A DNA stretch of 64,000 nt from Okamejei kenojei (taxonomy: Eukaryota): the NCBI GenBank assembly GCA_035221665.1, contig CM069159.1, positions 19,530,001-19,594,000 on the forward strand. The letters are read 5' to 3'. This document shows, in pieces, positions 2,325 to 55,313 of the stretch. A program made the translations under genes and the position numbers. A model generated the notes under the pieces. The model ran no database searches. It was not told the DNA's origin and was given only the letters and a program-made list of their open reading frames with translations. Position 1 is the first letter of the stretch; the number at the start of each line of letters is the position of its first letter.

Positions 2325-3312
2325 TTAAACAGAGATGCATTTTACATAAGAGATGGATTTAACAATTGTTGGTGACCTGAAACTGAACACCCAGGATTAG
2401 AATGTGACAAGGAAACCAGAGATATGTCCAAAAAGAAAGTGCAACATTCTTGGATGAAGATACTGCAGAAGGATGAGGAAGGGATGTGGCAGTCTTGATG
2501 AAGGGGGTCAGTACATTGCAGGAGAGAGAGAATAATCTGCCAAGGAGAAGAGAAAAATGTAAAGACCATGGTAAGAATCTTTCAGACTTTGTAGATTAAG
2601 CAGTGATGAATGAGAATTTTGGAGGCGGTTATAGAGTTATAGTGCTGTATAGAATGGAAATAAGCCCTTTGGCCCACCATACCCATTCCCGACAAGGTTA
2701 GGATTTGGATCTAGTCCCATTTGCTTGCAGCTTACAACCTAAGTGTATGTGCACATAGGTATCTAACCTGCAAACTACTAAATTATTCAGTAGATTACTG
2801 AATATAAATAGTAAGATTAAACGAGACCTTACCAGTTTGAAGTTTGATCTTTATTTTATAAGGAGTTACGTTGGTGATTACGTGAAGAAGTCCCGCCAGT
2901 TCGCATGCGCATCAATCTTCAAAGCAGCGGTGTGAAAACACAAATAACAGTTATCAAAGTAACATAGTAAGATGAGCAACTTGAGAACTACCAGATGACC
3001 TTTGTGAGAGAGGGTTGGACGTGGAGGGCACGTAATCACCAACGTTACGTCTTATAAAATAAAGATCAAACTTCAAACTGGTAGGTTCTCGTTTAATCTT
3101 ACTATTTTACTTTGGAGTCACACGAGTGATTCCATGAAGGGTTCAAAGCTTCGTGATTTCATGCCGCAGATTCAAATCCCGGCTTCTCACTGCATTGATT
3201 GACTCGGAATGAGAAATAATCAATAATGCATTAATGTTGACATTGCATTAAATGCAGTAACAAATTTATTTGAATAACAAAAGAACAGTAACCCCTCTAA
3301 CACAGGGGGAAC

Positions 3313-4286
3313 TTAAACAGAACATAATACGGTATTAGCAAACAGCCCCGGATCGGCAATCGGACGATAGTAGAAATGTTGAAAAGCCAACTCATTTGAC
3401 CACCCGGCGGCTGCGAGAATATGGTCGATGGGCACGTCTATCGCCCTTGCCACCGACGTTGCTGCTGCCCTAGTGAAATAAGATGTAAAAACATCAGTGT
3501 TAATACCTGCATCAACCAATACTTATTTCAACCACCTCGAGATAGTCTGTACTGACACTCTTTGTGTGGCTTCCTGTAACTGATAAACAATCCTGTTTCC
3601 ATATTTCGTAAGGCCCTCGTAGCTTCAATGTATTGCAGCAAATGTGTCTTTACACATAGACATGGATCCATGGGATATGCCGAAAAAACAATCTTGAACC
3701 CTGTCACACCTGGCCTGCTCTGTTTGAGTAGGTCATAAATGTAGAACGTAACATTATCTGCAGCCACTTCCATTCTGTCTAGCTGCAGCTTTTGCAATGT
3801 CTGCACTCGTTGTGCTGATACCCGAGCCATGAGCATGACCACCTTCATGGTGACTTTGGCCAAAGTCAGAGTTGTGTCAGGGGTCCACTGACGAAGCAGC
3901 TTGAGGACCAAGCTTACATCCCAGATTGCCATATACCTGGGTTTAGGAGGTCTGGAGTTAAAAATTCCTTTCACCAATCGAGAAACGAGAGGATGAGACC
4001 CAATAGGATGTTCTTCTGACCCCATCAATAAGTACGAAGACAATGCACTTCTAGCTGAATTGATCGCACTATAACTCAACCCCTCATCGTAATGGAGTGT
4101 TGACAGAAACTCTAGAATATGCAAAATACCTGCCGTACAATATTCAATATTATTTTGTACACAGAAAACTTCCCATTTTTTAACATCAGAAATATACTGC
4201 TTTTGAGTACCCATCCTCCAGGCTGCAGTGATCATGTCCACAGTTCGCCCAGACAGTCCTCGTCCCAGATATGGCCTTCTTAAAAC
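3313..4286 (-). pseudogene. DIRS copy 1 tyrosine recombinase (frameshifted near 3530)
   Basis: SAINSARSALS, QRVQTL (catalytic R), KQSRPG, (H)STRAAATS-like, AAGWSNE..F..FY motifs; ORF begins at a cag splice acceptor with no ATG at its start. Confidence 0.9.
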
Positions 4287-7026
4287 CTGCAAATTAACAA
4301 ATCAATACGGTCATATAACGGATGCCATTCGCCAGTTACCAGGTGCACCAGTAAATCCCTTCGTTTGGGAACAGCCATCAGGGGTTGTATCATCAACTCC
4401 AATATCAAAGGGAACCATGGCTGAGTAGGCCAGTCACCCCTGAAGTGGCATCCTGCTTGATTTTAAGCAGACACCGACTTATGAGACAGAATGGTGGAAA
4501 TGCATATATAAACATACCACCCCAATGTAGCGAGAAAGCGTCAGTTGCTACTGCCCCAGGATCTGGTTCCCATTACACATATTTAGGTAGCTGGTGGTTG
4601 AGTCTGGATGCGAACAAGTCGATATCTGGCCTTCCATATTTGACAACTATATCATTGAATACGTTCTGATTCAACATCCATTCTGTGTTGTCATGGAGTT
4701 TTCGTGACCTGGTGTCTGCTACTATATTGAATCTACCTGGTAGATAAATAGCTGAAAGCCAAATATTGTTGTCAATACTCCAGGTCCAGAATTGATTAGC
4801 CAGTTTGTCACAAGATGCCGACTTGATTCCACTCATGTGATTAACATACACCACTGCCGTAGTGTTGTCAATTTGAAGCCTAACATGCAGGTTAGTTGTG
4901 TTAGAACAATAAGCCTTGAGTCCATAAAAAACTGCCAAAAGCTCTAAGTAGTTAATTCCCCATGTCTGCAGAAGCAATGGCTCTTCCGCATTCCATCTGC
5001 CTCCACAGCTGGAGCTCGTATCAGTGGCACCCCACCCTAGTGCAATGACATCAGTCTGTAAGACCATGGAAGGCTGTTCAATCACTACTTTGCGGAACTA
5101 CTGGAGACATGCTGAATCCACCACTGCAGGTCAGTAACAGCATCTGCTGATAACTGCATGGGCCTATTATAATGGCCCGAATGTATCCTGAGTGCCTGTT
5201 CCTTTGCCCTCTGTAACTACTTGTAGTGCAAAGGCCCATACTGAACTTCCGGAAAAGCTGCCACCAGTTTTCTGAGCAGGCTGGCCACCTGTCTATTTGA
5301 AGGTTGTTGCTCCTTCAAAAGCTTAATGCAACCATCAATTAGTTCCACTATTTTCTCCCTGGGCCACTAACATGTGAATTGAATCAATTGTGAAACCCAA
5401 ATAGTCAATTGTTGTAAGTGGTGTTAATTTGGATTTCTCTGGATGAATGATAAACCCCAATTTTTCAAAAGTGAATGTAACAACTGCCACAGATGCTTCA
5501 GCTAATTCATTTGTTTGTCCTATAATTAAGATATCATCCAGATAAGCCATAACCACATGACCCTGGGCTCTAAGTAGCCCCTATACTGGCTTTAACAATT
5601 TAGTAAATATTCTCGGAGCTGAAGTTAACCCATTAGGCAGTGCCTTGAATTGGCATAATTGATTAATCCAGGTAAATTTCAAATGCTTTCTATCTACCAA
5701 ATGAATAGACACTGAGTAATATGCATCTTTCAGATCTATAGTTGCCATATAACATCATCTGGAAAGCAGTTGCTTGGCAGGAACAAATGTTTCCATTTTG
5801 AAGTGTCTATACTGTACAAAAGGGTTAAGACTTGTCAGATGCAAAATAATTCTACATCCTCCGTCCTTATTTGGTCGGGGAAAAATATTTGACTTGGTGA
5901 ACCGACCTCTCAATTACTACTTTATTACACAAATGTTCAAGTTCAGCCTGAACCTCCATTACTTCCATTTGTGAAAAATTGAGTGTTCTGCTAGGAACAT
6001 GCTGGAGGGGCAAATCACCATTTGGATCGAACTCAATTCGAAACCCTTGAATAATACTCATGATAAATGGATCTGAGGTAATTTGCTTCCTTTCCTCATG
6101 GAACAGATGTAATCTAACCCCAACTTTCGGCTGTGTTGTACTTAATATGTTCCCATGAGAACCAGGCCCACCTAACTCCTTGGTAACTGGTGTGACCTGC
6201 TGTCCCCAGTTCCTGGCGGGAAGCCACACGTTTATCCGTGTTCCCGCTGTAGAGTACCAACTGCGCATCTGCGGCGACGGCCGACCTGTTCCTGGTGTAG
6301 ACCCGGAATCTGCACCTCTTCTGTAGGGATACCTTCTCCTCACAGATTTGCCGACGATCGGTGTCTTAATCAAGCCCACCGTTTTTGCTTCGTCATCCAA
6401 CTCCTTCACGCGATTCGCGAGGTCCTCCCCAAAGAGTAGGTTGGGTGGCTGCACATTGGTGGGCTTGCAGAGCGCTGCAAACTTAGGGTTGATGCACTCT
6501 TCCTGAGACAATTGATCTCAAAGTGGGCGCTGCACAGCAACTCTAGTGCCTCTTGATGCGTCTCCGACAGATGCCCTCCATCCATTGTTCTAGCGAATGC
6601 CGTGATTCCTGAACCCAGCAGCTCCAGGATTCTCTGCAGCTTTATTTCCTGGGCACGCATGCGCACGCCCATCTGACCCCATATCACCTGGTTTACTGCT
6701 GGTACCTTTAGCAACACGCAGTTCCTTGGGGTCTCGTGCGTATGCAACAGGTGCTCCATTTGGGATAACCGTTCAAAAACAGTGTCCAGCTCCGGAGGGG
6801 AATCTTCCCGGCCCGACTCCCCCGATTCCGTGGGCCTGACAGACTTGTGCATTGCCTTACTCCTGACTGGCGCAGGCTCCGTGCTTTGCAGCACAAAGTC
6901 TGCAGTCGCCCCGCTCCCAGCCGGCGACTGTGCACGGGTATGAGGCAGCCGTTCACAGACCGCACTCCCTCAGCTGTCTACGGATTTTGCTCCGGCTCGC
7001 CTCTTCCCCTTGCCCGTCTTGTCCAT
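4280..7026 (-). pseudogene. DIRS copy 1 gag-pol (gag, RT, RNase H, N6-adenine MTase-like), several frameshifts
   Basis: caccATGG start at 7026; ORFs 6406-6894, 5867-6511, 5335-5556, 4573-5085; gag reads into the RT N-terminus in one frame. Confidence 0.9.
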
Positions 7027-7984
7027 GGTGCTACCTAAAGAGAAACAACACGGCACCACAGCAAAACGGACTCGAACTCTAGCTAAGTTTTTCCCACTTA
7101 CCTGGAGTCTAAATACTTACCGCTGGAGGAGCTCTGTTCCTTCCAGCCTCCGTGCGCCAATGCGGCTGACGTAATGACGTGCATGCGCACTGGCGGGACT
7201 TCTTCACGGAATCACTCACGTGATTCTGAAGTAAAATTTAACCTAAACAAGTATTGAAATATAGGCAATCCAAATATTTGGAAGAGTTGTATTTTAAGAA
7301 TTGTGAAGCCAGCTAATAGAGTCACACAGCGTGGAAACAGGCCCTTCGGCCCAACTTGCCCACGCTGACCTATATGCCCCATCTACACTGGTACCACCTG
7401 CCCGCACTTGGCCATTAACCCTCTAAACCCATCCTATCCATCCTGCCAATACCTGGAGCAGGTAATAATAATTAAAGAGGCACAAAATTAATTTCAGTGA
7501 TAGTCTTCATACCTAACCTATGATTCTTTGCATTAAAACTGCAGATGCTGGAGATCTGAGTTGAAAATAAAATTATTGTAAACGCTGAGCTAATCAGGCA
7601 GAATCTGTGGAAAAATAAACTTTAATTGTTTCTCTTAACACAGTTGTAACCTATGCTGCTCAGTGTTTCTACCTTGGAGAAGAACTTTATTTTATGATCC
7701 CTTTACCTTGGCTACATAACTGCACAGACTTCATTTGACAGAAACATTCAACATGGGTAAATTACTTATTCTTCTTCTTGGTTGGAATGAATTACAATTA
7801 ATTAGCCCGACTTCCCATGGAACGTGATTAATCTATATCAGTGTATCTAAATGTGGTATGATATGTAACTATAATCAATACACATATTATAGGAGCTGCA
7901 TTTCTGCAGAATTATATAAATACTTTATCATAAACCTGTATAGTGTAGAGACTGGAGATCATCATAGTATTGCAAATACTTTAC

Positions 7985-8322
7985 CATAAACCCATATTCG
8001 TGTTCCTTGGCCCTTTTCATGAATTGGAGGGAAGACATTTAGTACATTCACCTCACAAGTATATGTGTAAACAGAGTGACCAAACGATACATTTTCAATC
8101 TTCAGTGATACCGTACAGTGTTTGAAACCATCCCAGAGGGGGTGAGGATTGCAGAGCTTTTGTAAGTAGCATCAGCCCCTTTCGGCGATGTCCGATACCA
8201 GGAAACACGGAGCCAGGCATCCACACTTGCATTATAAGTAAATGTACAGTTTAACGTGACGGATTGGTTGCTCCATACACTGACCAGGCGTGGCTGGGTC
8301 AACTCTGTGATCAACGGAACTC
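7985..8322 (-). pseudogene. Ig V-set exon with germline-joined J-like G strand (NKp30/CD28/TMIGD2-like); 1-nt frameshift
   Basis: GVPLITELTQPRLVSVWSNQSVTLNCTF..LRVSWYR..[shift near 8130]..GFKHCTVSLKIENVSFGHSVYTYTCEVNVLNVFPPIHEKGQGTRIWVY; ttccatcag acceptor and G|gtaaag donor; 338 nt, one short of a symmetric phase-1 exon. Confidence 0.85.
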
Positions 8323-9036
8323 CTGATGGAACATAAATAAATTTGTTATTTTTACTTCCATTAATAATCCCGCAGAAGCTCACTTTAAACAACACCAGTG
8401 TGCGGGGATCATTGATCAGCGCGAACCTGGTGGGCCAAAGGGCCTGTTTCCAAACTGTATCTCTAAATTAAACTAAACTAAACTAAACTAAACTTAACTA
8501 AAAGCAATGCTGAACTGGAGACAAAAACAGAATGCTGGCAGAACTCAGTGGGTCAAGCAGCATCTCGGGAGGCTGAAGGTATAATATGTTTTGGGTGAGT
8601 CCCTGTAGGGGGGGATTAGAAAAGATGACCAATATGTAGCAGGATGTGGGAGAATGGGATGGGGATTAGTTGGCAACAGTTAGAACCAGATGGGGAGCAG
8701 GGAATGTGCAAATGGATCAATGGGTGGGGTGGATGAGATGAAAGCAGATGGGGGAAGAGGGCCTAAATTTAACATTGGCTTTCCATTGCATCAATTATTT
8801 TTTAAATATATAATTGTGCATTTTTTTTAATTTATCGTACATTTTTATTTTATTGGATTATTAATTTTTGATGTCCATTTATTGAAATGAAGCCATTTTT
8901 AATTATTTGGTATATTGAATGGAGATGCATGAATTGGGGTATAAAGTATTCATTAGATAACTGATTATAAAAGTAACCTAAACAAGTATTGAACTATAAG
9001 GCAATCTGAATATTTGAGAGAGTTGTATTTTAATAA

Positions 9037-34134: not shown

Positions 34135-34798
34135 CTAATGAGAAAGAAAAATAGCAAAGTTGTGAGGAATAAGTTCTGAAATTATTTTGTGATGTTCAAT
34201 TAAGAACCACCCAGGAATATAAATCTAGAGTGATTATTCACAGCTTCTTCCTCAAACACACAACCAACTCTGTCACTCCACCCAATCCATTTACTTTTTT
34301 ACTAAAATGCCTTGGGTTATTTACCAATATGAACATCAGTACAAGCAAATTCTACTCAGAGTTTAATGAATGTTCAACTATAAAGAATGACAAAGACATA
34401 CCCGTATTCTATGATTTATCTTCTGAAACTTATTTCAAATGTTCCCTCAGGATCAATTTTGGACACCCTCTTTTCCACACTGTGAAGATATCCAGTTAAC
34501 TTTCCAAGATGTAGAGATGACACAAATCTCTAACTGCCTCCATTTTGTTATTCTATTTATCTGCTATGCACCTCTGGCCAAGTTACTCCCAGTTTACCTC
34601 CAGTTTTACTTTGGAGTCACGTGAATGATTCCGTGAAGAAGACCCGCCAGGCCGCACCAGTACGTCAGTCGCATTGACGCACGGAGGCTGCGAGGAACAT
34701 AGCTCCTCAAGCGGTAAGTATGCAGACTCCAGGTAAGTTAAAAACTTTTGACTGGAGTTTGAATCTGTGCTGGCCGGTACGCTATACCGAGTGCTAGC

Positions 34799-37700
34799 GT
34801 GGACAAAACAGGGAAGGGAAAGCGGCGCGTTTCAAACGGCCGCGGCAGTCTAGGCTTGGAAGCCCTGCCTCATACCCCTGTTCAGTCGCTAAGTACAGAA
34901 ACAGCGACTGCAGACTTAGTGCCACATAGCACAGAGCCATTGCCATTAGGGCACAAGGCAACCGATAAGTCTGCTAGGCCCACGGAGTCGGGAGATGATT
35001 CCTCACCGGGGCTGGATAGAGTGTGTACTTGCCTATCCGAAGTGGAGGAACTGTTGCATACAGTCCTCCAAAGAACTTCACTCCAAGAGAAGGAGTGTCA
35101 GCGCTTAGAGAAAGAAGCGCCAGCAGCAACAATGCTGCCAGAGATTCCTTTTCCATTTGAAGAGAGTGCAATGGGCCAGATTAGTCCTGAGCCCGATTCT
35201 GATGGGGAAGTTCAACTTGGAGAAACAGAACTACCAAATGTTCCACCACTGGCACTTCCATTTGCTGTCCCATCAGGAGCAGGTGAGCCACTAGGTGACG
35301 AGCTGGCTATCACAATTAATTACATGGTATCTCATCAGTTTCAGGAGCTTACTATGGATGAGACAGCCAAAAAACTTGAGTCTCCAAGTAACTGTGAAGT
35401 GTTAAGAGTTCCAACGGTGAATCAAGTCATTTGGGGTCAGATGGGACGCAGCATGTGAAGCCAAGAGATAAAAATGCAAAGAATGTTAAAGTTATTGGCT
35501 GCTGGTATTACAGCATTTGCAAGAACAATGGATGGTGGTTTTGTGACCAGAACACACCAAGAGGCTCTAGGGTTGTTATGCAACACCTATTTTGAGATCA
35601 ATGGTCTCAGGAAAAGGGCTATAAGGCCCACCATTAATCCTAGACGGTACACAAAAGGCTGGAGAAACTCAGCGGGTGCAGCAGCATCTAAGGAGCGAAG
35701 GAGATGGGCGATGTTTCGGGTCGAGACCCTTCTTCAGACTGGTCCTAGATATGCTGCGCTTTGTAAGCCAGCAAGTATACAACTACCTGATCTGCTGTTT
35801 GGCGCAGATCTAACCAAGCAGGTCAAAGAAATAAATGAAGACGCTAAAACAATGAGTCTGAGAAGACCAATGATGCCCGGCAGACAGCTGAAGAGAATGT
35901 ATCCCTACAGAACCACCTCAGCATCCGGGGCTACTCCAGGGACAAGGCGGTCCTCAGCACAGGGACGAGGATGGTATCCCTCGGTGGGAGCACGAGCAAC
36001 TATGGAGGCCACTGCCAGAGGCTGGAGTCAGCAGGGTGCACCAGTCACCAGAGAGGTAAGTGGACCTGGTTCTCATAAAAACATATTAAATGTAACTCAA
36101 GGAAAAATTGGTGGTAGATTACGGCTTTTTTATAACGAATGGAAGCAGTTTACTTCAGATCTATTTATCAGGAGTGTAATTCGAGGGTTTCGGATTGAAT
36201 TTATTCCAAATGGTGCTTTACCTTTCCAACATGTTTCTGTTAGAGCACTTTATTTTTCACAAACAGAGGTAATAGAGGTTCAAGCTGAACTCACAAAATG
36301 ATATAACAAAGGTGTAATTGAAAAAGACGGATCATCAAGTCCATCAATTTGTGTCAAATATTTTTCCCCGCCCCAAAAAGGACGGAGGATGTAGAATCAT
36401 TTTGAATCTAACAAAATTAAATCCATTTGTACTCTACAGACACTTTAAAATGGAAACATTGGTTACGGCCAAGCAACTCATTTCCAAAGATTGTTATATG
36501 GCTACAATAGATCTGAAGGACGCTTATTCTTCAGTGCCTGTTCATTGCGAGCATAGAAGGTATTTTAAATTCATTTGGATGAATCAATTATGGCAGTATA
36601 AGGCACTGCCGAATGGATTGACCTCAGCTCCTAGAGTATTCACTAAATTGTTAAAACCAATGTTGGGGTTGCTTAGAGGTCAGGGCCATGTAATTATGGC
36701 CTATCTGGATGATATTTTAATAATTGGACAAACAAAAGCTTTAGCCGAAATATCAGTGGCAGTTGTCAAATCCACATTTGAAAAGCTGGGGTTTGTCATT
36801 CATTTGGAAAAATCCAAACTTACGCCAAGTACCACAATTGATTATTTGGGGTTTTCAATTAACTCAATCAAAATGGTAATTACTTTGCCAAGTGAAAAAA
36901 GTACAGAGCTAATTGAAGATTGTGTAACGCTTTTAAACAAGCATAAACCTTCAATTAGGCAAGTGGCAAGGCTTCTTGGAAAATGGTAGCAGCCTTTCCA
37001 GCAGTCCAATTTGGGCCTTTGCATTATCAGCAGTTACAAAGAGCAAAAGAACAGGCACTTAAGGTACAATTTGGGCAGTATGATAGGCCCATTCAATTAT
37101 CAGCAGAAGTAATTACTGATATTTTATGGTGGATTCAACATGTCTCCAGTAGTTTTAGCACAATAGAGCTGGAATAACCTTCCTTGGTCTTGCAGACTGA
37201 TGTAAGTGCACTTGGATGGGGTGCCACAGACACAAATTCAAGTTGTGGAGGAAGATGGAGTTTGGAAGAAGCTTTGCTTCTGCAGACATGGGGAATTAAC
37301 CATTTAGAACTTTTAGGAGCATTTTATGGGCTCAAAGCTTATTGTTCTAACAAGAGAGTCTGCATGTTCAGCTCCAAATTGATAACACCACGGCAGTCGC
37401 ATATGTCAATCACATGGGTGGTATCAAGTCGGTACCTTGTGACAGACTGGTAAACCAAATCTGGATATGGTGCATTGATAAACACATTTGGCTCTCAGCT
37501 ATTTATCTGCCAGGAAAATTTCATACAGTGGCAGACACCAGGTCACGACAATTCCATGACAACATAGAATGGATGTTGAATCACGATGTGTTCAAAGACA
37601 TCATTGCCAAATATGAAACACCAGATGTCGACTTGTTTGCATCTAGACTAAACCACCAGCTTCCTAAATATGTGTCATTGTAACCAGATCCTGGGGCAGT

Positions 37701-37983
37701 AGCGATTGACACTTTCTCGCTGAATTCGGGGGGTATGTATATTTATGCATTTCCACCTTTTTGTCTCATGAATCGATGTCTGCTTAAAATCAAGCAGGAC
37801 AATGCTTCAGGGGTACTGGTGATACCCAACTGGCCTACTCAGCCATGGTATCCTTTGATCCGACAGCTGATGACACAACCTTTGAAGGCTGTTCTTAAAC
37901 AAAGGAATTTATTGGTGCATCCAGTGACTGGCGAATGCCATCCGTTGTATGACCGTATTGATTTGTTAATTTGCAGATTCTAA
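34799..37983 (+). pseudogene. DIRS copy 2 gag-pol (gag, RT, RNase H, MTase-like)
   Basis: gag continuous with RT apart from nonsense codons and indels; IDLKDAY, LPNGL, YLDD, DNTTAV, DLFASRLN..YAFPPF..WPTQPWYP. Confidence 0.92.
35645..35742 (-). repeat. Penelope-derived hammerhead repeat inserted in-frame in DIRS gag
   Basis: 7-bp TSD tcctaga (35638, 35743); net +105 nt; absent from copy 1 (INPKFAALCKP). Confidence 0.85.
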
Positions 37984-38965
37984 GAAGGCCATATCTGGGG
38001 CATGGATTGTCGGGTCGAACTGTCGACATGCTTACTGCATCTTAAAGATCGAGTACTCAAAAGCAGTATTTTTATTATGTAAAGAAATGGGAAGTTTACT
38101 GTGTACAAAATGATATTGATTATTGTACAGCACGTATTTCACACGTTTTGGATTTTTTGTCAACTCTCTACTATGATGAAGGACTAAGTTATAGTGCAAT
38201 CAATACAGCAAGAAGTGCTTTGTCATCATATTTAGTGATGAAGTCAGACAATCATTCAATTGGATCTCATCCTCTTGTGGTTCGATTAATGAAGGGCATG
38301 TTTAATTCCAGACCTCCCAAACCTAGATATATGGCTATTTGGGATGCAAGTATAGTCCTTAGGAAACTATGTGAGTGGTTTCCTATATCATCTTTGTCTT
38401 TGGCCAAAATTACCATAAAAGTGGCCATGCTTATGGCGTTGGTTTCAGCACATTACAAAAATTACAAAAGTTTCAGACGTTACAAAAATTACAGTTAGAC
38501 AGAATGGAAACTGCTGCGGACAATGTTACATTTTACATTTATGACCTCCTCAAACAGAGCAGGCCAGGTGTCACAGGGTTTAAAATAGTATTTGCAGCAT
38601 ATCCTACGGATCCATCTTTATGCGTAAAAACACATTTGATGCAATACATTGCAGTTACAGAGAGTTTACGTAACATGGAGACAGGATTGTTTATCAGTTA
38701 TAAAAAAACACATAAAAGAGTGTCAGTTAACACTATCTCCAGGTGGCTGAAACAAGTTTTGATTGATGCAGGTATTAACACAGATGTGTTTACATCTCAT
38801 TCCACTAGGGCAGCAGCTACTTCGGCGGCCAAAGCGAAGGATGTGCCCGTCGACCATATTATGGTGGCCGCCGGATGGGCAAATGAGCTGATGTTTCAGA
38901 ATTTTTGTCATCGCCCGATTGTTGATCCAGGATTGTTTGCTAATGCCATTTTAAGTTCTATTTAA
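37977..38965 (+). pseudogene. DIRS copy 2 tyrosine recombinase
   Basis: SAINTARSALS, KQSRPG, SHSTRAAATS, AAGWANE; one nonsense codon and a small duplication/frameshift; starts at a ttaatttgcag acceptor. Confidence 0.92.
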
Positions 38966-39519
38966 CTGCCCTGCTATTAAAGAATACTGTTGTTTGTTTA
39001 TGTTATTAAATAAACCCTATTACTACATTGAATGCAATGTTACTACTAATGCATTATTTCTCATTCGAGTCAATCAATGCAGTGGGATGCCGAGTTTGTA
39101 ATCTGCGGCATGAAATCACAAAGCTTTGAACTCTTCATGGAATCACTCACGTGACTCCGAAGTAAAATAGTAAGATTAAACGAGAACTTACCAGTTTGAA
39201 GTTTGATCTTGATTTTATGAGGAGTTACGTTGGTGATTACGTGCCCGCCACGCCCAACCCTCTCTCATAAAAGATCACATGGTAGTTCTCGAGTCACTGA
39301 TCTTACTATGTACTTCGGGGTTGTTTTTGTGATTTCTTACCGCTGCTTTGAAGATTGGTGCGCATGCGGCCTGGCGGGTCTTCTTCACGTAATCACCAAC
39401 GTAACTCGTCGTAAAATCAAGATCAAACTTCAAACTGGTAAGTGCTCGTTTAATCTTACGATTGTCTCAGTGTGACCCGGATATGTATATAAATGAAACA
39501 TCAGAAGTTAAATGCAATT

Positions 39520-48020: not shown

Positions 48021-48790
48021 TAATAAATTAATTGCAATTATAATTACAATTATTTTAATGACAGAAAAAGTGTTTAACCACCAGGAAAGTAGGTCAACAT
48101 TATGGCATCGAGGGACCAAATCTTTTATCATATAGGTGACCTGGAAACAGACAGGAATTAAGAAGAGAGTTGAAGTGCCATCAATGAGGAAGAGCTGTGC
48201 AAAACCTACTTTCATATTTAAGTGCAAACTGCACATTCTATTGTAAATTTAATCTGCTACTTGCTTGTCCAAGTCCTGTGTTTATATATCCTCCGCAGTA
48301 AGACTGAAAAAAGCATAATTCTATTTCAGGACTCTCCGATGTGCTGCACACTTTTGAAGTGGAGTCGTATTGTGATGCAGAAATTGTGGAAATCCAAGTT
48401 GCATGGAGTGGGATCCCACAGTGAGTAAAGAGTGAAAACTCAATCTGTTGTTTAAAGATTAGTGTGCGGCAGCGTTAAGAGGTTGTTAATGGGGGTACTG
48501 ATTTTGGATGATCAACCATCATCATATTGAATGACAGAGTTGGCTCAAAGGGTCGAACGGCCTACTCCTGCACCTATTTTATATGTTTCCAATATTGCCT
48601 CATTTATCAAACAGAGTATCTGATTTTAACTGAAATATGTCATCTCAATCTGCTTTTCATTTTCTAAAGGAACAACTGATTGCCAACACCTTTCCTTCAC
48701 AAATTACCCTTTTATTGATCACTTTATTTTGATCTACATTTTTTTAATCTTCCCTTCAATTCAATTTTATAATACTGCACCACAAGTCCA

Positions 48791-51700
48791 ATTTTACTTC
48801 GGAGTCACGTGAGTGACTACGTGAAGAACCCGCCTGGCGCTGGCAAACGGCATTACGTCGACGCTGACAGCAGAAGCAGGAGCTGCACAGACAGCTCCTC
48901 GACAGCGGTAGGTTCGGAACCGGCAGGTAAGTGCTGTTGAAAAAATTTTTTAGGACTAGAAAACTCCGTGCCTGGTGGAAACCAGGATTTTAAAGGTTTT
49001 AAAAACTAACTAAAAGTTTAATTTGAACAGATATACTCTGTTAAAATAACGGAGTTTTAAAAAGAACGTCCCAGGGGAATACCCAGCGATCGGGACGAGA
49101 GATTAATTACGGGGCCGGTTCCGATACTGGTACCGTTTAAAATACGGTAGAAAGGTTTAAATGCTCCACAATTTTGGCAGGATATTTTAAAAGTCAGAAA
49201 GACTGTATTTTTAAAAAAAAGTTAATAAAATTCGCGATATGGAGAAAGTACTCCATAATATAAAAAGAGACTAGGGTCACAGTACCCAAACAGTTCCCCA
49301 AAAAAGACCCTGAGGGGCTTGAATGTACTAAAGACCAGGTCACAGTACCCAAACAGTTCCCCAAAAAAGACCCTGAGGGGCTTGAATATACAAAATATGG
49401 CTATGTGCCAAATTGAGAAATAAAAACTCTGACCCTGGATAGGGTGGAGGAAGTCTCTTTGGATATAATCCCAACTGGATCAGGGCTGCAAAAGACAGAC
49501 CCTGCAAGTGGTGATGTGAATTATGAATGCACACCACAAATAAAATAAAAATAAAAGTGAGGCCAGGTGTGCCTGAGATAGCAAAAGTTTTTGCTATATC
49601 TAAAGGAAGTGGTGAGGCTATGGAAAAACCTAGCTGCCTACATTAATTATATGGTATCTCACCAACTTCAAGAATACGATAAAACTTCATGTTTTATTTA
49701 AATATCAATGGTTAATCCATTTATAAATATCCATGTCTCAAATATATGAGATATAAGAAATACAATTTCAAAGTTTCAAAATGGTGCAAATATGTAATAC
49801 TTGCAATATAAAATAAATTGCCATTAGTTGTGGAGCTTAATAGGAAGAAATATATATATAATTTACCGAATCTGCATCATAGGGTTGCAGATTAATACAA
49901 ATCAGGATATATTAAACTCCTGATTATTATAGAATACCTGCCTTATGATAAATCAAAGATATTAATTACAAAAGAACAGACCACTGATCTTTAAACTTTG
50001 GGAAGGAAAACTATGATCCAATAAAAATTTTGATTATGGATCAAAACAAAGACAAAGATCTTTTATCTTACGGTGAAAAAACTATGATCCAATGAAAAAT
50101 TTGATGATGGATCAAAATAAAGGCAGAAGTGGTATTATCCAAACATAGCCTTATCTTAACCTATAAAATTGGGGAAAAGAAGGCTTGATGTACGTTGAAG
50201 AGGTGCAAAACATCTGGTTACAAAATAAGTAATGAAATCTCCAATTATGGGGGATTACAGGTGTATTATGATGGTTAAAACTTAATATAACTAAGGAGGA
50301 TTGGTTCACCTGTATAAGGGGAAAACTGATTTCAGGTTTGCACTCAAAAGTAAATTTTAAAAGAAGGGGAACGTACATGTATATTATAAAATTACCTTAG
50401 TGTAAAGATTCATGGTATAAACCATACAATAATATCATTATTTACACTTTCACAGTGTAAGAAAATAGAAACATCTAGAACATAGAAAACTGTTGTGATT
50501 AACAAAGTGTTAATCAATATTACAGGTGCTTGAAATTAATTAAAGTGGGTCAAGCTGTGCAAGTTAAAACTTGTCCAAACAATCAATCAGTTCAAGTTGT
50601 TAAACTGAACACTGAAGGAACAATATACTGATAAAAGATCAGCACTTGCACTAATGAGGTACATGGTATGGGTTATCTCGATTACATTTAAATTAGAAGA
50701 GATAAAGAGCAGCTGCAAATTAGTGCCTACCATGACAAACCTGGTGGAAGGTAGGACTTGACCCACTACATAAAGCATATGCTCAGGCATTAATAAAATA
50801 TTTTTAAATTACTATTCTGAATTCAGAAGTAATTTAAGCACCATAAGAGTGGGGAAAATTGTTCCATGATACAAATATGTATTATTGTTGTTGACATACT
50901 TTGTCCTTCCATTAGGTTAGGGGAAAATATAAATAAAGTTCCAAAAGAAGGAATACAGAAGCTTATAGAATATGTATGCCTTGTGAAGAGGCTTATGCAA
51001 TATATCAAATGATACGTTATCATTATTAGTAATGTAAAAAAGGTTCATAAGCTGCTTCAACTATAAAATTACAACTGAAGCAAGTGTTACAGATGATGTA
51101 CAGCTTCTGTGAATGTTTGGGTAAAGATAAGAATATTATCTATTCTTATAACAATAATTGATATGTTTTTTGTTAAGCGGACTGCAGACAATTATACCAG
51201 GCAAACATAAATGGTTTGTCCTAAGATTTTTCCAAACATTCGTATTAATTGTTGAAGTATAAGGAGTTATGGATAAAAAAGATCGATTGTTTTATTATGG
51301 AACTGTCCATGTCGTATCAAGATGAACAATACCACGGCTGTGGCATATGTTAACTATGGTCAAATTTGGGAGGAAAGTATATTGTCATTATTTTGCATAC
51401 TTACGATTAATCTGGTTGTATACAGATTAAATCACTGATTTTAAATATTTCTTGTGGGTCACAAGATAAGTCAAACAACAATTATGGGATTATCTAAGTA
51501 AACAGATGTGGTATGTTTTAAAATTTAGTCCACCTGTTTATCTCTAAGGAAGAGACAATGGTATCGGAAGATAACAAATTTGGGAAGAAAAACATATTGT
51601 CATTAATATGGATTACTTACGATTAATCTGATTGCATACAGATTAAATCACTGATCTTTCGAATATTCTTGTGGGTAATCTAAGAACAGTGAAGGTGGAT

Positions 51701-53701
51701 GCTTTTCTCCAAATTACATGAGGAAAAGATTCTTTGTGTTCCTCATTTTTGTTTTAATAGGGCAGTGTCTGATGAATATGTAGCAGGACACTGCCAGAGG
51801 CATTTTGGTGGCCCAATATGGGTCCTTTATGGTTCATTTATATTGTGTGATTTTGAACTGCTAGTGATGATTCATAATGGCAGTAATTTATTGAAGTCAA
51901 AAAGGGGTCTCGACCTAGGTCGTTGCCTGTCTCCCTTTGTTTCTTTGGATGCTGCTGCATCCACTGGGATCTCCAGGTTGAGAAACCCTGCAGTAATTTA
52001 TTGTTGTACAAAACCTCCATAAGTGAAAATATGAATTTGACTATCTACAGGTTGACTAGACCATCTCAACAGCTGATGGTCAAAGAAGTCTATGAATGTA
52101 AACCAATATTACGATATATCAATAAAATAATTATGTATAAAGAAGTGTTATACCTGCAATTTGCGGAAATAAGTCTAAATAAACTATATTTTGTTATAAG
52201 AAATTGGAGGTCTGTATATACAGTAAAGTTATTTTTTCATTTAGATATATGTGAATTCCTTGTGGATTGCATTTTCTAAGTATCTAATTGATAGAGCCAA
52301 TTATAGGGCTCAGAGTGTTATCGTCTTATAAACGGACAATATATTAACCAAGAAGTTATCAGATGCATTCATAATATCCCAATATGGAAAGGGATATATA
52401 TATAAATGTTAATAAAATATATATATGTGTGTGTGTATATATATAGATATAGATATAGATATAGATATAGATATAGATATAGATATGGGTATATGTATAT
52501 ATAATCTGTCCAAAATTGTAAAAAATATAAAGGCAGGAGATAAAAATCTTGAAATGCCTTAAGAAATGGACTTTAACTCTATCTATGATTCAAAAAACTT
52601 AAACATTGAAAATAATAATTCTGATAACTTTAGTATCAATATAAGAGTGCAAACATTGCAAATGTTACGTTATAATGGCATGTGGATACAAATTGCATTA
52701 TCATATATGTTTATGAATCTACCAAACAAAGCACGCCAAGAAGACCTGAAAACAAAACCAAGGTAAACCTATAAGCACATCCTGCTGGCTTTAAGTTGTG
52801 TATGTGTGAACATTGATGAAAATGTTGCAGTAGGTAAGAGTCTGTGGCAATGAGACTGCTTATTACACACAAAAACCACATTGGGTTCAGTAAAACTGAT
52901 GGTTATAGAGGAATGTATTTCTAGATGGTTAATAATTGGATACATTCAGTAGGAACTAGACACTGAAAGGTGGAAAATCACTCTGTTAATGAGGAAAATA
53001 CATTCACAGGAATGGCACAGGATGAGCCACTCGAGCAAAGATGCAAGGCCGCAGGAGGCTGTAGATTACTGTTAAAATAAAGGAACCAGTCATGGTGACA
53101 GATTTAGACACGCAATGTTCGGTTCGCTATAATTGTTGCTTTGTCATGCCATAAATATATATCAATTGGTATTTGTGATCAATTTGCTTTTCAATAGAAA
53201 GGGCATTATATTCATTTTTTATAATGTGAAAATTATTTATCACATAACTTGAGGCAATGTTTGGGGAAAATGTGTTATTCGCTCGTTATTGTGTTAATGA
53301 GCCGTACTGTCGTATGGAATAAATTCTACGACACGAAAAACACAGAAAACTTTAAACTCTTCACGTAGTCACTCACGTGACTCCGAAGTAAAATAGTAAG
53401 ATTAAACGAGAACTTACCAGTTCGAAGTTTGATCGTTATTTTATGAGGAGTTACGATGAGGGATTACGTGCCCTCCACTCCCCACCCTCATAAAATAAAT
53501 GATCATCTGGTAGTTCTAAGTCTATTATGAGCCTTACTATGTTACTTCGGCTATTTTTGTGTTCTGTGTTTTTCATGCCGCTGCTTTGAAGTATGCCGTT
53601 TGCCAGCGCCAGGCGGGTTCTTCACGTAATCCCTCATCGTAACTCCTCATAAAATAACGATCAAACTTCGAACTGGTAAGTTCTCGTTTAATCTTACTAT
53701 T
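48791..53701 (+). mobile_element. Non-autonomous DIRS derivative (copy 3)
   Basis: Perfect 34-bp ITR (48820-48853 / 53593-53626); ICR 53359-53470 exactly complementary to both ends; AT-rich interior with only vestiges of gag, RNase H and YR. Confidence 0.9.
52440..52486. repeat. (ATATAG)n microsatellite inside DIRS copy 3
   Basis: Direct reading. Confidence 0.9.
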
Positions 53702-55313
53702 CTCTACTTTAGTATTTTGCTAGCTTTTTCCAATGAAATAAACATTGCCTATTAGTATAGTCCTAATAAAAACAAGCTGGACGGAAGTAAGATCAACAAT
53801 AAAGATATTATTCATTTTAATTTGTCAATGCAATTGGAGGGTGTTCCAAATTAAGTTGACAGCTGTTCACTCACCCGCCCTGTCATTCTGTAACAATAAG
53901 GAACTGCAGATACTCGTTTATACCAATGTTTAACCCTATTATTTTCATGCTTACAGGCTATTAACACATTAGTAATTTGCTAGGGACATACTTTCAGTTT
54001 AATCTATTGTGGGAGAGGCTTGTACTGGAGAGATGTCTGTGGCTGCTGAAGGGAGTGAATGGCAGTAATGAGAAAGCTTTTTCCAAGCCGGCACCTATAA
54101 AGTAAACACAGCTGTGTAGCATGATTTTGTATAAACATTAACAGAAATGCACGAATCACGTGGCTTTAAGGACAACGTATGTGGAAAAAGCAACCAGTTA
54201 AAGTAAAACACCAAAAAAAGACACAAAGTGCTTGAGTAACTCAGCAGGTCAGACTGCATCTCTGGAGAACATGGATAGGTGTTGTTTCGGGAAGAAGAGT
54301 CCCAACGCAATTGTCACCTATTCATGTCCTCCAGTGATGCTGCCTGACCCATTGAGTCACTGCAGCACTTTTTGTCTTTCTTTTTGTATAAACCAGCATC
54401 TGCAGTTCCTCGTATCTCCACACAAAACAAAATGTGCTGGAGGAACTCAGTGTCTGAGGCAGCACATTGAGAGAGAATGGACAGGCAACTTTTCAGGTCA
54501 GGATACCTTCCTTGGTGGAATGGTCCTGAACTGAAAGTCACCAGTCCATTCCCATACCAGACCTGCTAAGTTCCTCCAGTACTTTGCCCAATATTTCTGT
54601 ACCTTCAGTCACTTGTATATTCAGACAAGTTAGCGTTTCAGGTTGCAGACTCTTCATCAGGACTATCCCTATAAACATTAGCCTATTTCCATCAAAAGCA
54701 AAATAATTGGGTTCTGGAAATCAGAAATACAAGCAGAAATCTTTTGAAGAAGGGTTTCGGCCCGAAACGTTGCCTATCTCCTTCGCTCCATAGATGCTGC
54801 TGCACCCACTGAGTTTCTCCAGCATTTGTGAACCCCAGCAGAAATCTTTTGCTGTCTCTTCTACCTACCGGATATCCTTGCACACTTAGCTGGCAACATT
54901 TATCATCCAGAAATCACAATTCCATATCAACATTAACCAAACCAATATTCGGTTCATCTACTTCTCATATTCCCGACTCCACACGGCAGCTTTCCCGATT
55001 CCACACGGCGGCTTATATTTCACTGATCGGAACAAAACTTGGTGGCTTGGAGCAGAGGAGAATGGTGAGTAATGTGGCGAAAAAATCCTAGCAATATAGG
55101 GTAGCACTTTTGTGCAACTTTAATTACAATGGTCAAGATGAGAGTTTTAGTAATAGTATAGAGAACGACATGAAACAATTTCAACTCGAGATGTTTAGAT
55201 ATCAGCACAAATCAGTGGTTTCCTGTCCTCACCACCAATAACCATGCTAACAAAACAGTAAGTCATGAGTAGTATTTCTCGAAATTGGCAGGAAATTACT
55301 GATGTCAGATTCT

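Follow-up and report, generated by a model that had tools for sequence, protein, structure and literature searches.

Conserved splice sites around pol suggest that DIRS1-like retrotransposons of Okamejei kenojei express their recombinase as a spliced Gag fusion

Retroviruses and long terminal repeat (LTR) elements can express a product by choosing between full-length and spliced RNA, in effect retaining or removing an intron; env of simple retroviruses and gypsy, and foamy-virus pol, come from such spliced subgenomic mRNAs. A spliced short GAG RNA is described for plant Ty1/copia elements in the available part of PMC5580714. For DIRS1-like retrotransposons, the available text of three sources (PMC3266345, PMC7192593, 10.1101/2021.08.05.455354) describes inverted termini, a two-part internal complementary region (ICR), gag, a pol gene of the reverse transcriptase/RNase H/methyltransferase (RT/RH/MT) type, a tyrosine recombinase (YR) and trans mobilisation of deleted elements, with three separate or overlapping open reading frames (ORFs), and mentions no splicing of the elements' transcripts. 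Translation of the third gene has so far been left open or ascribed to frameshifting: the only printed mechanism that we found for YR, in the accessible portion of PMC13003380, is a -1 frameshift, which Poulter and Butler 2015 are quoted as calling probable for Ngaro elements. Here we analyze a window of 64,000 nucleotides (nt) from Okamejei kenojei (GCA_035221665.1, contig CM069159.1, positions 19,530,001 to 19,594,000, forward strand) that holds three decayed DIRS elements, copies 1, 2 and 3. In copies 1 and 2 gag continues into pol in a single frame, as the initial annotation of the window had claimed, and pol lies between conserved splice sites. Because the genes do not form three separate ORFs, these elements are a variant rather than a typical member of the DIRS1-like superfamily.

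We consider it very probable, judging from sequence, that Gag-YR is expressed by splicing in these elements, with pol as a retained intron. Pol is bracketed by an in-phase donor and acceptor; Gag-Pol would be translated from unspliced RNA, which would also be the template, and a fusion of Gag with the recombinase from spliced RNA. We infer that the recombinase is normally reached in this way and that the fusion is actually translated. The observations behind this reading are the splice sites, their phase and conservation, the lack of a general recombinase start codon and the exact loss of pol in a dispersed family: the segment has GT-AG ends, a consensus donor, a pyrimidine tract and matching phase, and its precise removal is seen in DNA. 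It differs from retroviral and LTR splicing in that the intron would be the entire pol gene and the product an integration enzyme fused to the whole of Gag. We found no published account of DIRS RNA splicing to express YR; the Goodwin/Poulter papers lay outside our coverage, and the novelty of the idea is uncertain. New here are the family of processed DNA copies and the switch of acceptor sites, both described below.

The gag-end donors stand where the initial annotation placed them, as GAG^GTAAGT at 36056 in copy 2 and as the degenerate GAG^TTAGGT at 6175 in copy 1 (^ marks the splice point). In copy 2 the acceptor reads TTTGCAG^ATT, so that the predicted intron is 1921 nt long, in phase 0, and the next exon begins at 37977; in copy 1 this exon begins at 4286. 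The YR ORF had been said to open exactly at the acceptor without an ATG, which holds for both positions and needs one qualification, an in-frame ATG 17 codons downstream in copies 1 and 2. As annotated, both junctions are in phase 0 and would yield an in-frame Gag-YR.

That splice had been predicted to the base, and precisely this junction is carried by pol-less genomic copies, which derive from the copy-1 family. A two-motif pattern (gag end and YR start with 4-8 free bases between them) had 11 genomic matches and its reversed control 0; ten of the 11 read CCAAGGA(G/A)^GTTTTAAG, exactly as predicted for a junction in the copy-1 family, and translate in frame as PVTKE^VLRRPYLG. A search with one junction-spanning sequence gave 23 full-length matches among the 40 scored, and the pol-less loci total 26 (two near-duplicates; L141 and L145 included). 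No pol base remains at the junction in any of the 20 loci displayed, nine of which are letter-perfect over 14 nt, and the 5' flanks are all different among the 12 loci displayed. Ten of the 26 loci (L074-L078, L108, L110, L112, L115, L116) lie on contig C3 of assembly G000, which makes up about 5% of the genome.

The pol-less copies consist of a 5' terminus, leader donors, a 1.95-kb insert, gag, the junction, YR, ICR and a 3' terminus, and their termini begin ATT/TTT. The insert is about 80% similar to the 5' part of another deleted family (L149-L157), a non-autonomous DIRS family with about 2 kb of non-coding DNA in place of gag and part of pol, which is the source of the pol-less family's leader; as the insert nearly equals the lost pol (1.87 kb), element length was restored. 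A full-length U6 small nuclear RNA match (57 bits) lies in the leader at L102:2703-2807. The closest full-length relatives, L147 and L148, keep pol and the short leader, with a divergence of 8.6% to the pol-less group and 8.4% inside it. We propose that one spliced RNA was reverse-transcribed, that the product acquired the 5'-terminal 2 kb of another non-autonomous DIRS element by recombination, and that it then spread in trans; DIRS RT acts in trans according to the available portion of PMC7192593. Like processed retrocopies, these loci are dispersed and have lost a GT-AG segment precisely; unlike them, they keep DIRS termini and spread non-autonomously, with a leader of 2 kb that comes from a different DIRS family. 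Locus L106 was considered as an independent pol-less origin and dropped, its leader being interrupted by another insertion.

We assessed conservation of the donor in relatives fetched for copy 2 (39), copy 1 (10) and a young DIRS family, F3 (20; L121-L140, about 99% identity, 1866 search candidates). Of the 39 copy-2 relatives, 36 have AG^GTA(A/G)GT. The copy-1 variant is private: GAG^GTAGGT stands in 8/9 full-length relatives where the site was found, in keeping with the claim that copy 1 is one substitution away from it. A motif at the start of pol had 9,278 matches in the genome against 50 for its control, and from the first 100 matches listed we picked 60 loci for motif diversity, which form 23 clusters. 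A phase-0 AG^GT lies 16-18 codons before the GGRL of pol (-48/-51/-54) in 43/60 copies and 20/23 clusters, compared with 45 of 3360 control windows, and a gag-end AG^GT in any phase is found in all 23 clusters. The residue before the donor GT is E, Q or K, its codon ends in AG in 44/44 (background, 232/727), and A at +3 and G at +5 are favoured. Whether the family lacks a donor at the gag/pol boundary, a question raised in the initial annotation, is thus answered: the donor is conserved. F3 also has a GC-type donor motif, CAG^GCAAGT, 54 nt upstream of its gag-end donor. Two predicted little-skate RefSeq isoforms (XP_055504905.1 and XP_055504906.1) exit DIRS gag right after the donor's E and diverge there; they are the sole hint at transcript level of a gag-end donor, and a little-skate protein is among the best gag homologues.

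Donors also occur in the leader. When donors are scored simply by how many positions match the consensus MAG^GTRAGT, as was also done for the invertebrate loci below, a strong one lies in the leader near +130 in 34 of 40 termini and 18/18 clusters, which would fit an acceptor served mainly by leader donors. A gag-end donor could likewise have another purpose, such as U1 binding or a short Gag mRNA, and a tandem +4 donor (AG^GTAG^GT) is present in 13/23 clusters. We judge either arrangement highly improbable: patterns for leader-to-YR and leader-to-gag DNA copies had 0 matches each in the genome, most leader-YR RNAs would be without a start codon, and it is the gag-end donor that is in phase with YR and joined to it in the processed copies. 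The leader-YR splice proposed in the initial annotation is accordingly unsupported. The putative leader intron is still represented by its end in the pol-less copies and would thus not have been removed in their founding RNA. The coordinates of the paired leader donors hold in all three copies, with the correction that copy 3 belongs to a different DIRS family. The polypyrimidine acceptor 8 nt ahead of the copy-1 gag ATG is present as described; an acceptor ahead of the gag ATG occurs only in some families, and the copy-2 family is without a good pyrimidine tract there.

At the other end of pol, the acceptor CAG is found in 32 of the 35 copy-2 relatives covering the site. Acceptor counts across the genome come from 37 copies of the 60-locus sample, 20 loci being without a YR start and L314, L319 and L325 having been dropped for misplaced YR starts. 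YAG ends the pol frame in 32/37 copies (14/15 clusters), the YR frame is closed by a stop at most 10 codons upstream in 27/37, and 19/37 YR starts have no Met in the first 32 codons. As in the Ngaro-like elements described in the available text of PMC13003380, the YR frame is -1 to pol, overlaps its end and is without its own start, so that a -1 ribosomal frameshift out of pol might yield Gag-Pol-YR and the splice-like motifs might be incidental. The probability of this is very small in our estimate: the overlap has a median of 28 nt, a canonical slippery heptamer occurs there in 1/37 copies, and frameshifting would leave the donor, the acceptor switch and the exact pol-less junction unexplained. 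The termini differ as well; inverted termini and an ICR do not match the split direct repeats of Ngaro or PAT-like elements.

The splice sites extend to DIRS elements of invertebrate type, sampled as 80 metagenome loci, where a phase-0 donor lies upstream of pol in 30/37 clusters vs 3/37 downstream. Among 47 invertebrate clusters, an acceptor AG is found at the site used here only in 12, only at a second site in 27, at both in 2 and at neither in 6 (Fisher p 2e-5, not corrected for kinship). The second site is a phase-0 TTYAG at an FPPF-S motif, 71 codons upstream, where the YR frame of its carriers opens, and elements with the downstream AG have FPPF-C in place of FPPF-S. In 36 of the 47 clusters an acceptor and the stop at which the YR frame opens are at most 12 codons apart, compared with 229/1699 controls. 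The conserved Cys is followed, in the invertebrate elements with the FPPF-S acceptor, by H, L, K or P, or by R encoded by CGN. Because this residue varies and the acceptor moves, constraint on the pol protein does not explain the acceptor, which settles a doubt voiced in the initial annotation. The downstream type comprises the best matches to our query, and the switch may for that reason be a single evolutionary step.

The organization of gag and pol differs between the two groups. Gag and pol share one frame in 22/30 copies of the copy-2 family, 4/6 of the copy-1 family and 16/18 scorable copies of F3, with single ORFs of 668-989 residues spanning the boundary, whereas in invertebrate loci they are separate in 26/33, with pol in the -1 frame in 25/33. 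At the PFLG motif of gag, many invertebrate loci (L188-L267) carry T TTT TTA, a slip site like that of HIV, and the site is retained in clusters 9 and 21 of this genome. As invertebrate relatives keep the gag stop and the slip site, the fusion in most families of this genome is, by this sequence comparison, derived. The initial annotation's attribution of the arrangement to "this lineage" was thus too narrow for the splice sites and right for the fusion. In the invertebrate relatives and these two clusters the donor lies behind the slip site, and we propose that a -1 frameshift operates there; in the fused families, with the slip gone, the choice between the two enzymes would be left to splicing. 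We think it somewhat probable, with less confidence than for the elements studied here, that pol splicing is the general recombinase route of animal DIRS1-like elements from marine invertebrates to cartilaginous fish, that an HIV-like -1 slip in gag together with the splice is ancestral, and that loss of the slip in most families here leaves the integrase only as a Gag fusion and no free Gag from unspliced RNA.

Database Gag homologues are stand-alone proteins, and of the 141 that have an LFG motif, 139 reach their end no more than 160 residues from it; a search with a single gag protein sequence gave no matches, and gag profile searches gave stand-alone Gag. Two kinds of candidate Gag-YR protein were rejected, long YR homologues as gene models fusing RNase H to YR or as long frames that overlap, and P0175 as a mixed gene model. 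No relatives were found among viral contigs.

Several points weigh against our reading. The removal of pol is seen in DNA, and no junction in RNA was found: contigs of runs X1-X4, X5 and X10, compared with copy 2 (15 of 24 joints displayed) and with L125, have none at the sites, and as these runs look like DNA they speak neither for nor against splicing. No natural Gag-YR protein appears among 150 + 23 gag homologues, and our reading does not account for how fused families make free Gag, the +4 tandem donor being one candidate. The families are related and cluster counts are not independent, the background for E/Q/K before V is 9 G : 9 A and so above the overall 32%, and the gag-end donor of F3 is weak (GAG^GTATTA). 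No pol-less copies of the copy-2 family were found by exact patterns, and exact F3 gag-to-YR patterns at two candidate donors gave 0 matches each. The pol-less family, whose members have the 1.95-kb leader in common, is probably of single origin, one event, although the tree of its copies neither shows nor excludes this. Its junction has a 4-nt microhomology (AG^GT common to both ends), and other internally deleted DIRS families (L149-L157) are present in the genome. The family might therefore be a DNA or template-switch deletion at the microhomology, with splicing rare or nil and the recombinase started on some different RNA at its own codon, either the downstream ATG or the TTG or CTG that precedes the acceptor codon in 37/37. 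We regard this as very unlikely: pairs with at least 4 nt of microhomology number 35, 310 and 1212 within 50, 150 and 300 nt of both sites, and the junction is still the one predicted beforehand; TTG or CTG is expected from a pyrimidine tract before CAG, and the many YR starts without a Met speak against an own start.

Table 1. Features of the three DIRS copies in the window (window coordinates)
Feature	Coordinates	Strand	Remarks
Copy 2	34604..39466	+	full-length decayed DIRS1-like retrotransposon; 39 genomic relatives about 90-95% identical
Left terminus / inverted terminal repeat, copy 2	34604..34656	+	92% with ICR 39132-39167
Two leader splice-donor motifs, copy 2	34714..34738	+	GT at 34714, 34733; predicted from sequence
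gag, copy 2	34799..36055	+	first coding exon common to Gag-Pol and predicted Gag-YR
96-bp dispersed repeat within gag	35646..35741	+	insertion private to copy 2
Phase-0 donor GAG^GTAAGT, gag/pol boundary, copy 2	36053..36061	+	GT at 36056
pol (RT, putative RNase H and methyltransferase-like region), copy 2	36056..37976	+	predicted 1921-nt intron
Pyrimidine tract and acceptor TTTGCAG, copy 2	37957..37976	+	overlaps last pol codons LLICRF and stop
Tyrosine recombinase, copy 2	37977..38965	+	broken; 43% to database protein P0004
ICR, copy 2	39132..39243	+	two abutting halves
Right inverted terminal repeat and extension, copy 2	39365..39463	+	pairs with left terminus
Copy 1	2807..7236	-	decayed DIRS1-like element, about 79% identical to copy 2
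Tyrosine recombinase, copy 1	3313..4286	-	frameshift near 3530
pol / predicted intron, copy 1	4287..6175	-	1889 nt, phase 0; donor degenerate
Leader donors, acceptor and gag start, copy 1	7024..7120	-	donors 7120, 7101; acceptor AG 7036-7035; gag ATG 7026
Copy 3	48787..53705	+	decayed AT-rich DIRS element of another family; ends intact; leader donors 48908/48927

The coordinates of the features are collected in Table 1. Copies 1 and 2 are both dead, with stops and frameshifts; in copy 2, GTG replaces the gag ATG and a stop lies at 35456-35458. The inverted terminal repeats of copy 2 are 88% complementary (34614-34656 vs 39365-39407), and the ICR halves match the 5' end (39132-39167) and the 3' end (39166-39243). 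Its leader donor motifs read GCG^GTAAGT and CAG^GTAAGT. On the minus strand, the right terminal repeat at 39320-39350 repeats the CAGCGGTAA motif of the first leader donor, and this motif may thus partly be a terminal-repeat signal. Copy 2 has a recognizable RT (RVT_1, E 8e-23, 36318-36986); the putative RNase H and methyltransferase-like region after it has no Pfam match at 1e-3, yet aligns at 33-46% to proteins in the database, including one with PF05869, and D-x-F-A-x-x-x-N is invariant there. The last gene encodes a tyrosine recombinase rather than a DDE integrase, as PF00589 scores above cut-off in the F3 relative L125; a Pfam scan of the copy-1 recombinase fragment 3528-4301 gave no match. 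Copy 3 has only its ends and leader in common with copies 1 and 2, and its ends are near-perfect, with a 98% ICR match. Immunoglobulin-like exons lie on either side of copy 1 (808-1224 and 8102-8467, minus strand), and this copy seems, from their placement, to lie within an intron of a host immune-type gene.

With fixed splice coordinates, the question of how the third DIRS gene is translated becomes testable, and the processed family would be a fossil of the spliced RNA. If our reading is true, the integration enzyme of these elements would be a Gag fusion, which bears on its biochemistry and on annotation, and hosts would gain a splicing-level handle on DIRS elements, of which more than 9,000 pol-bearing copies are present in this genome.

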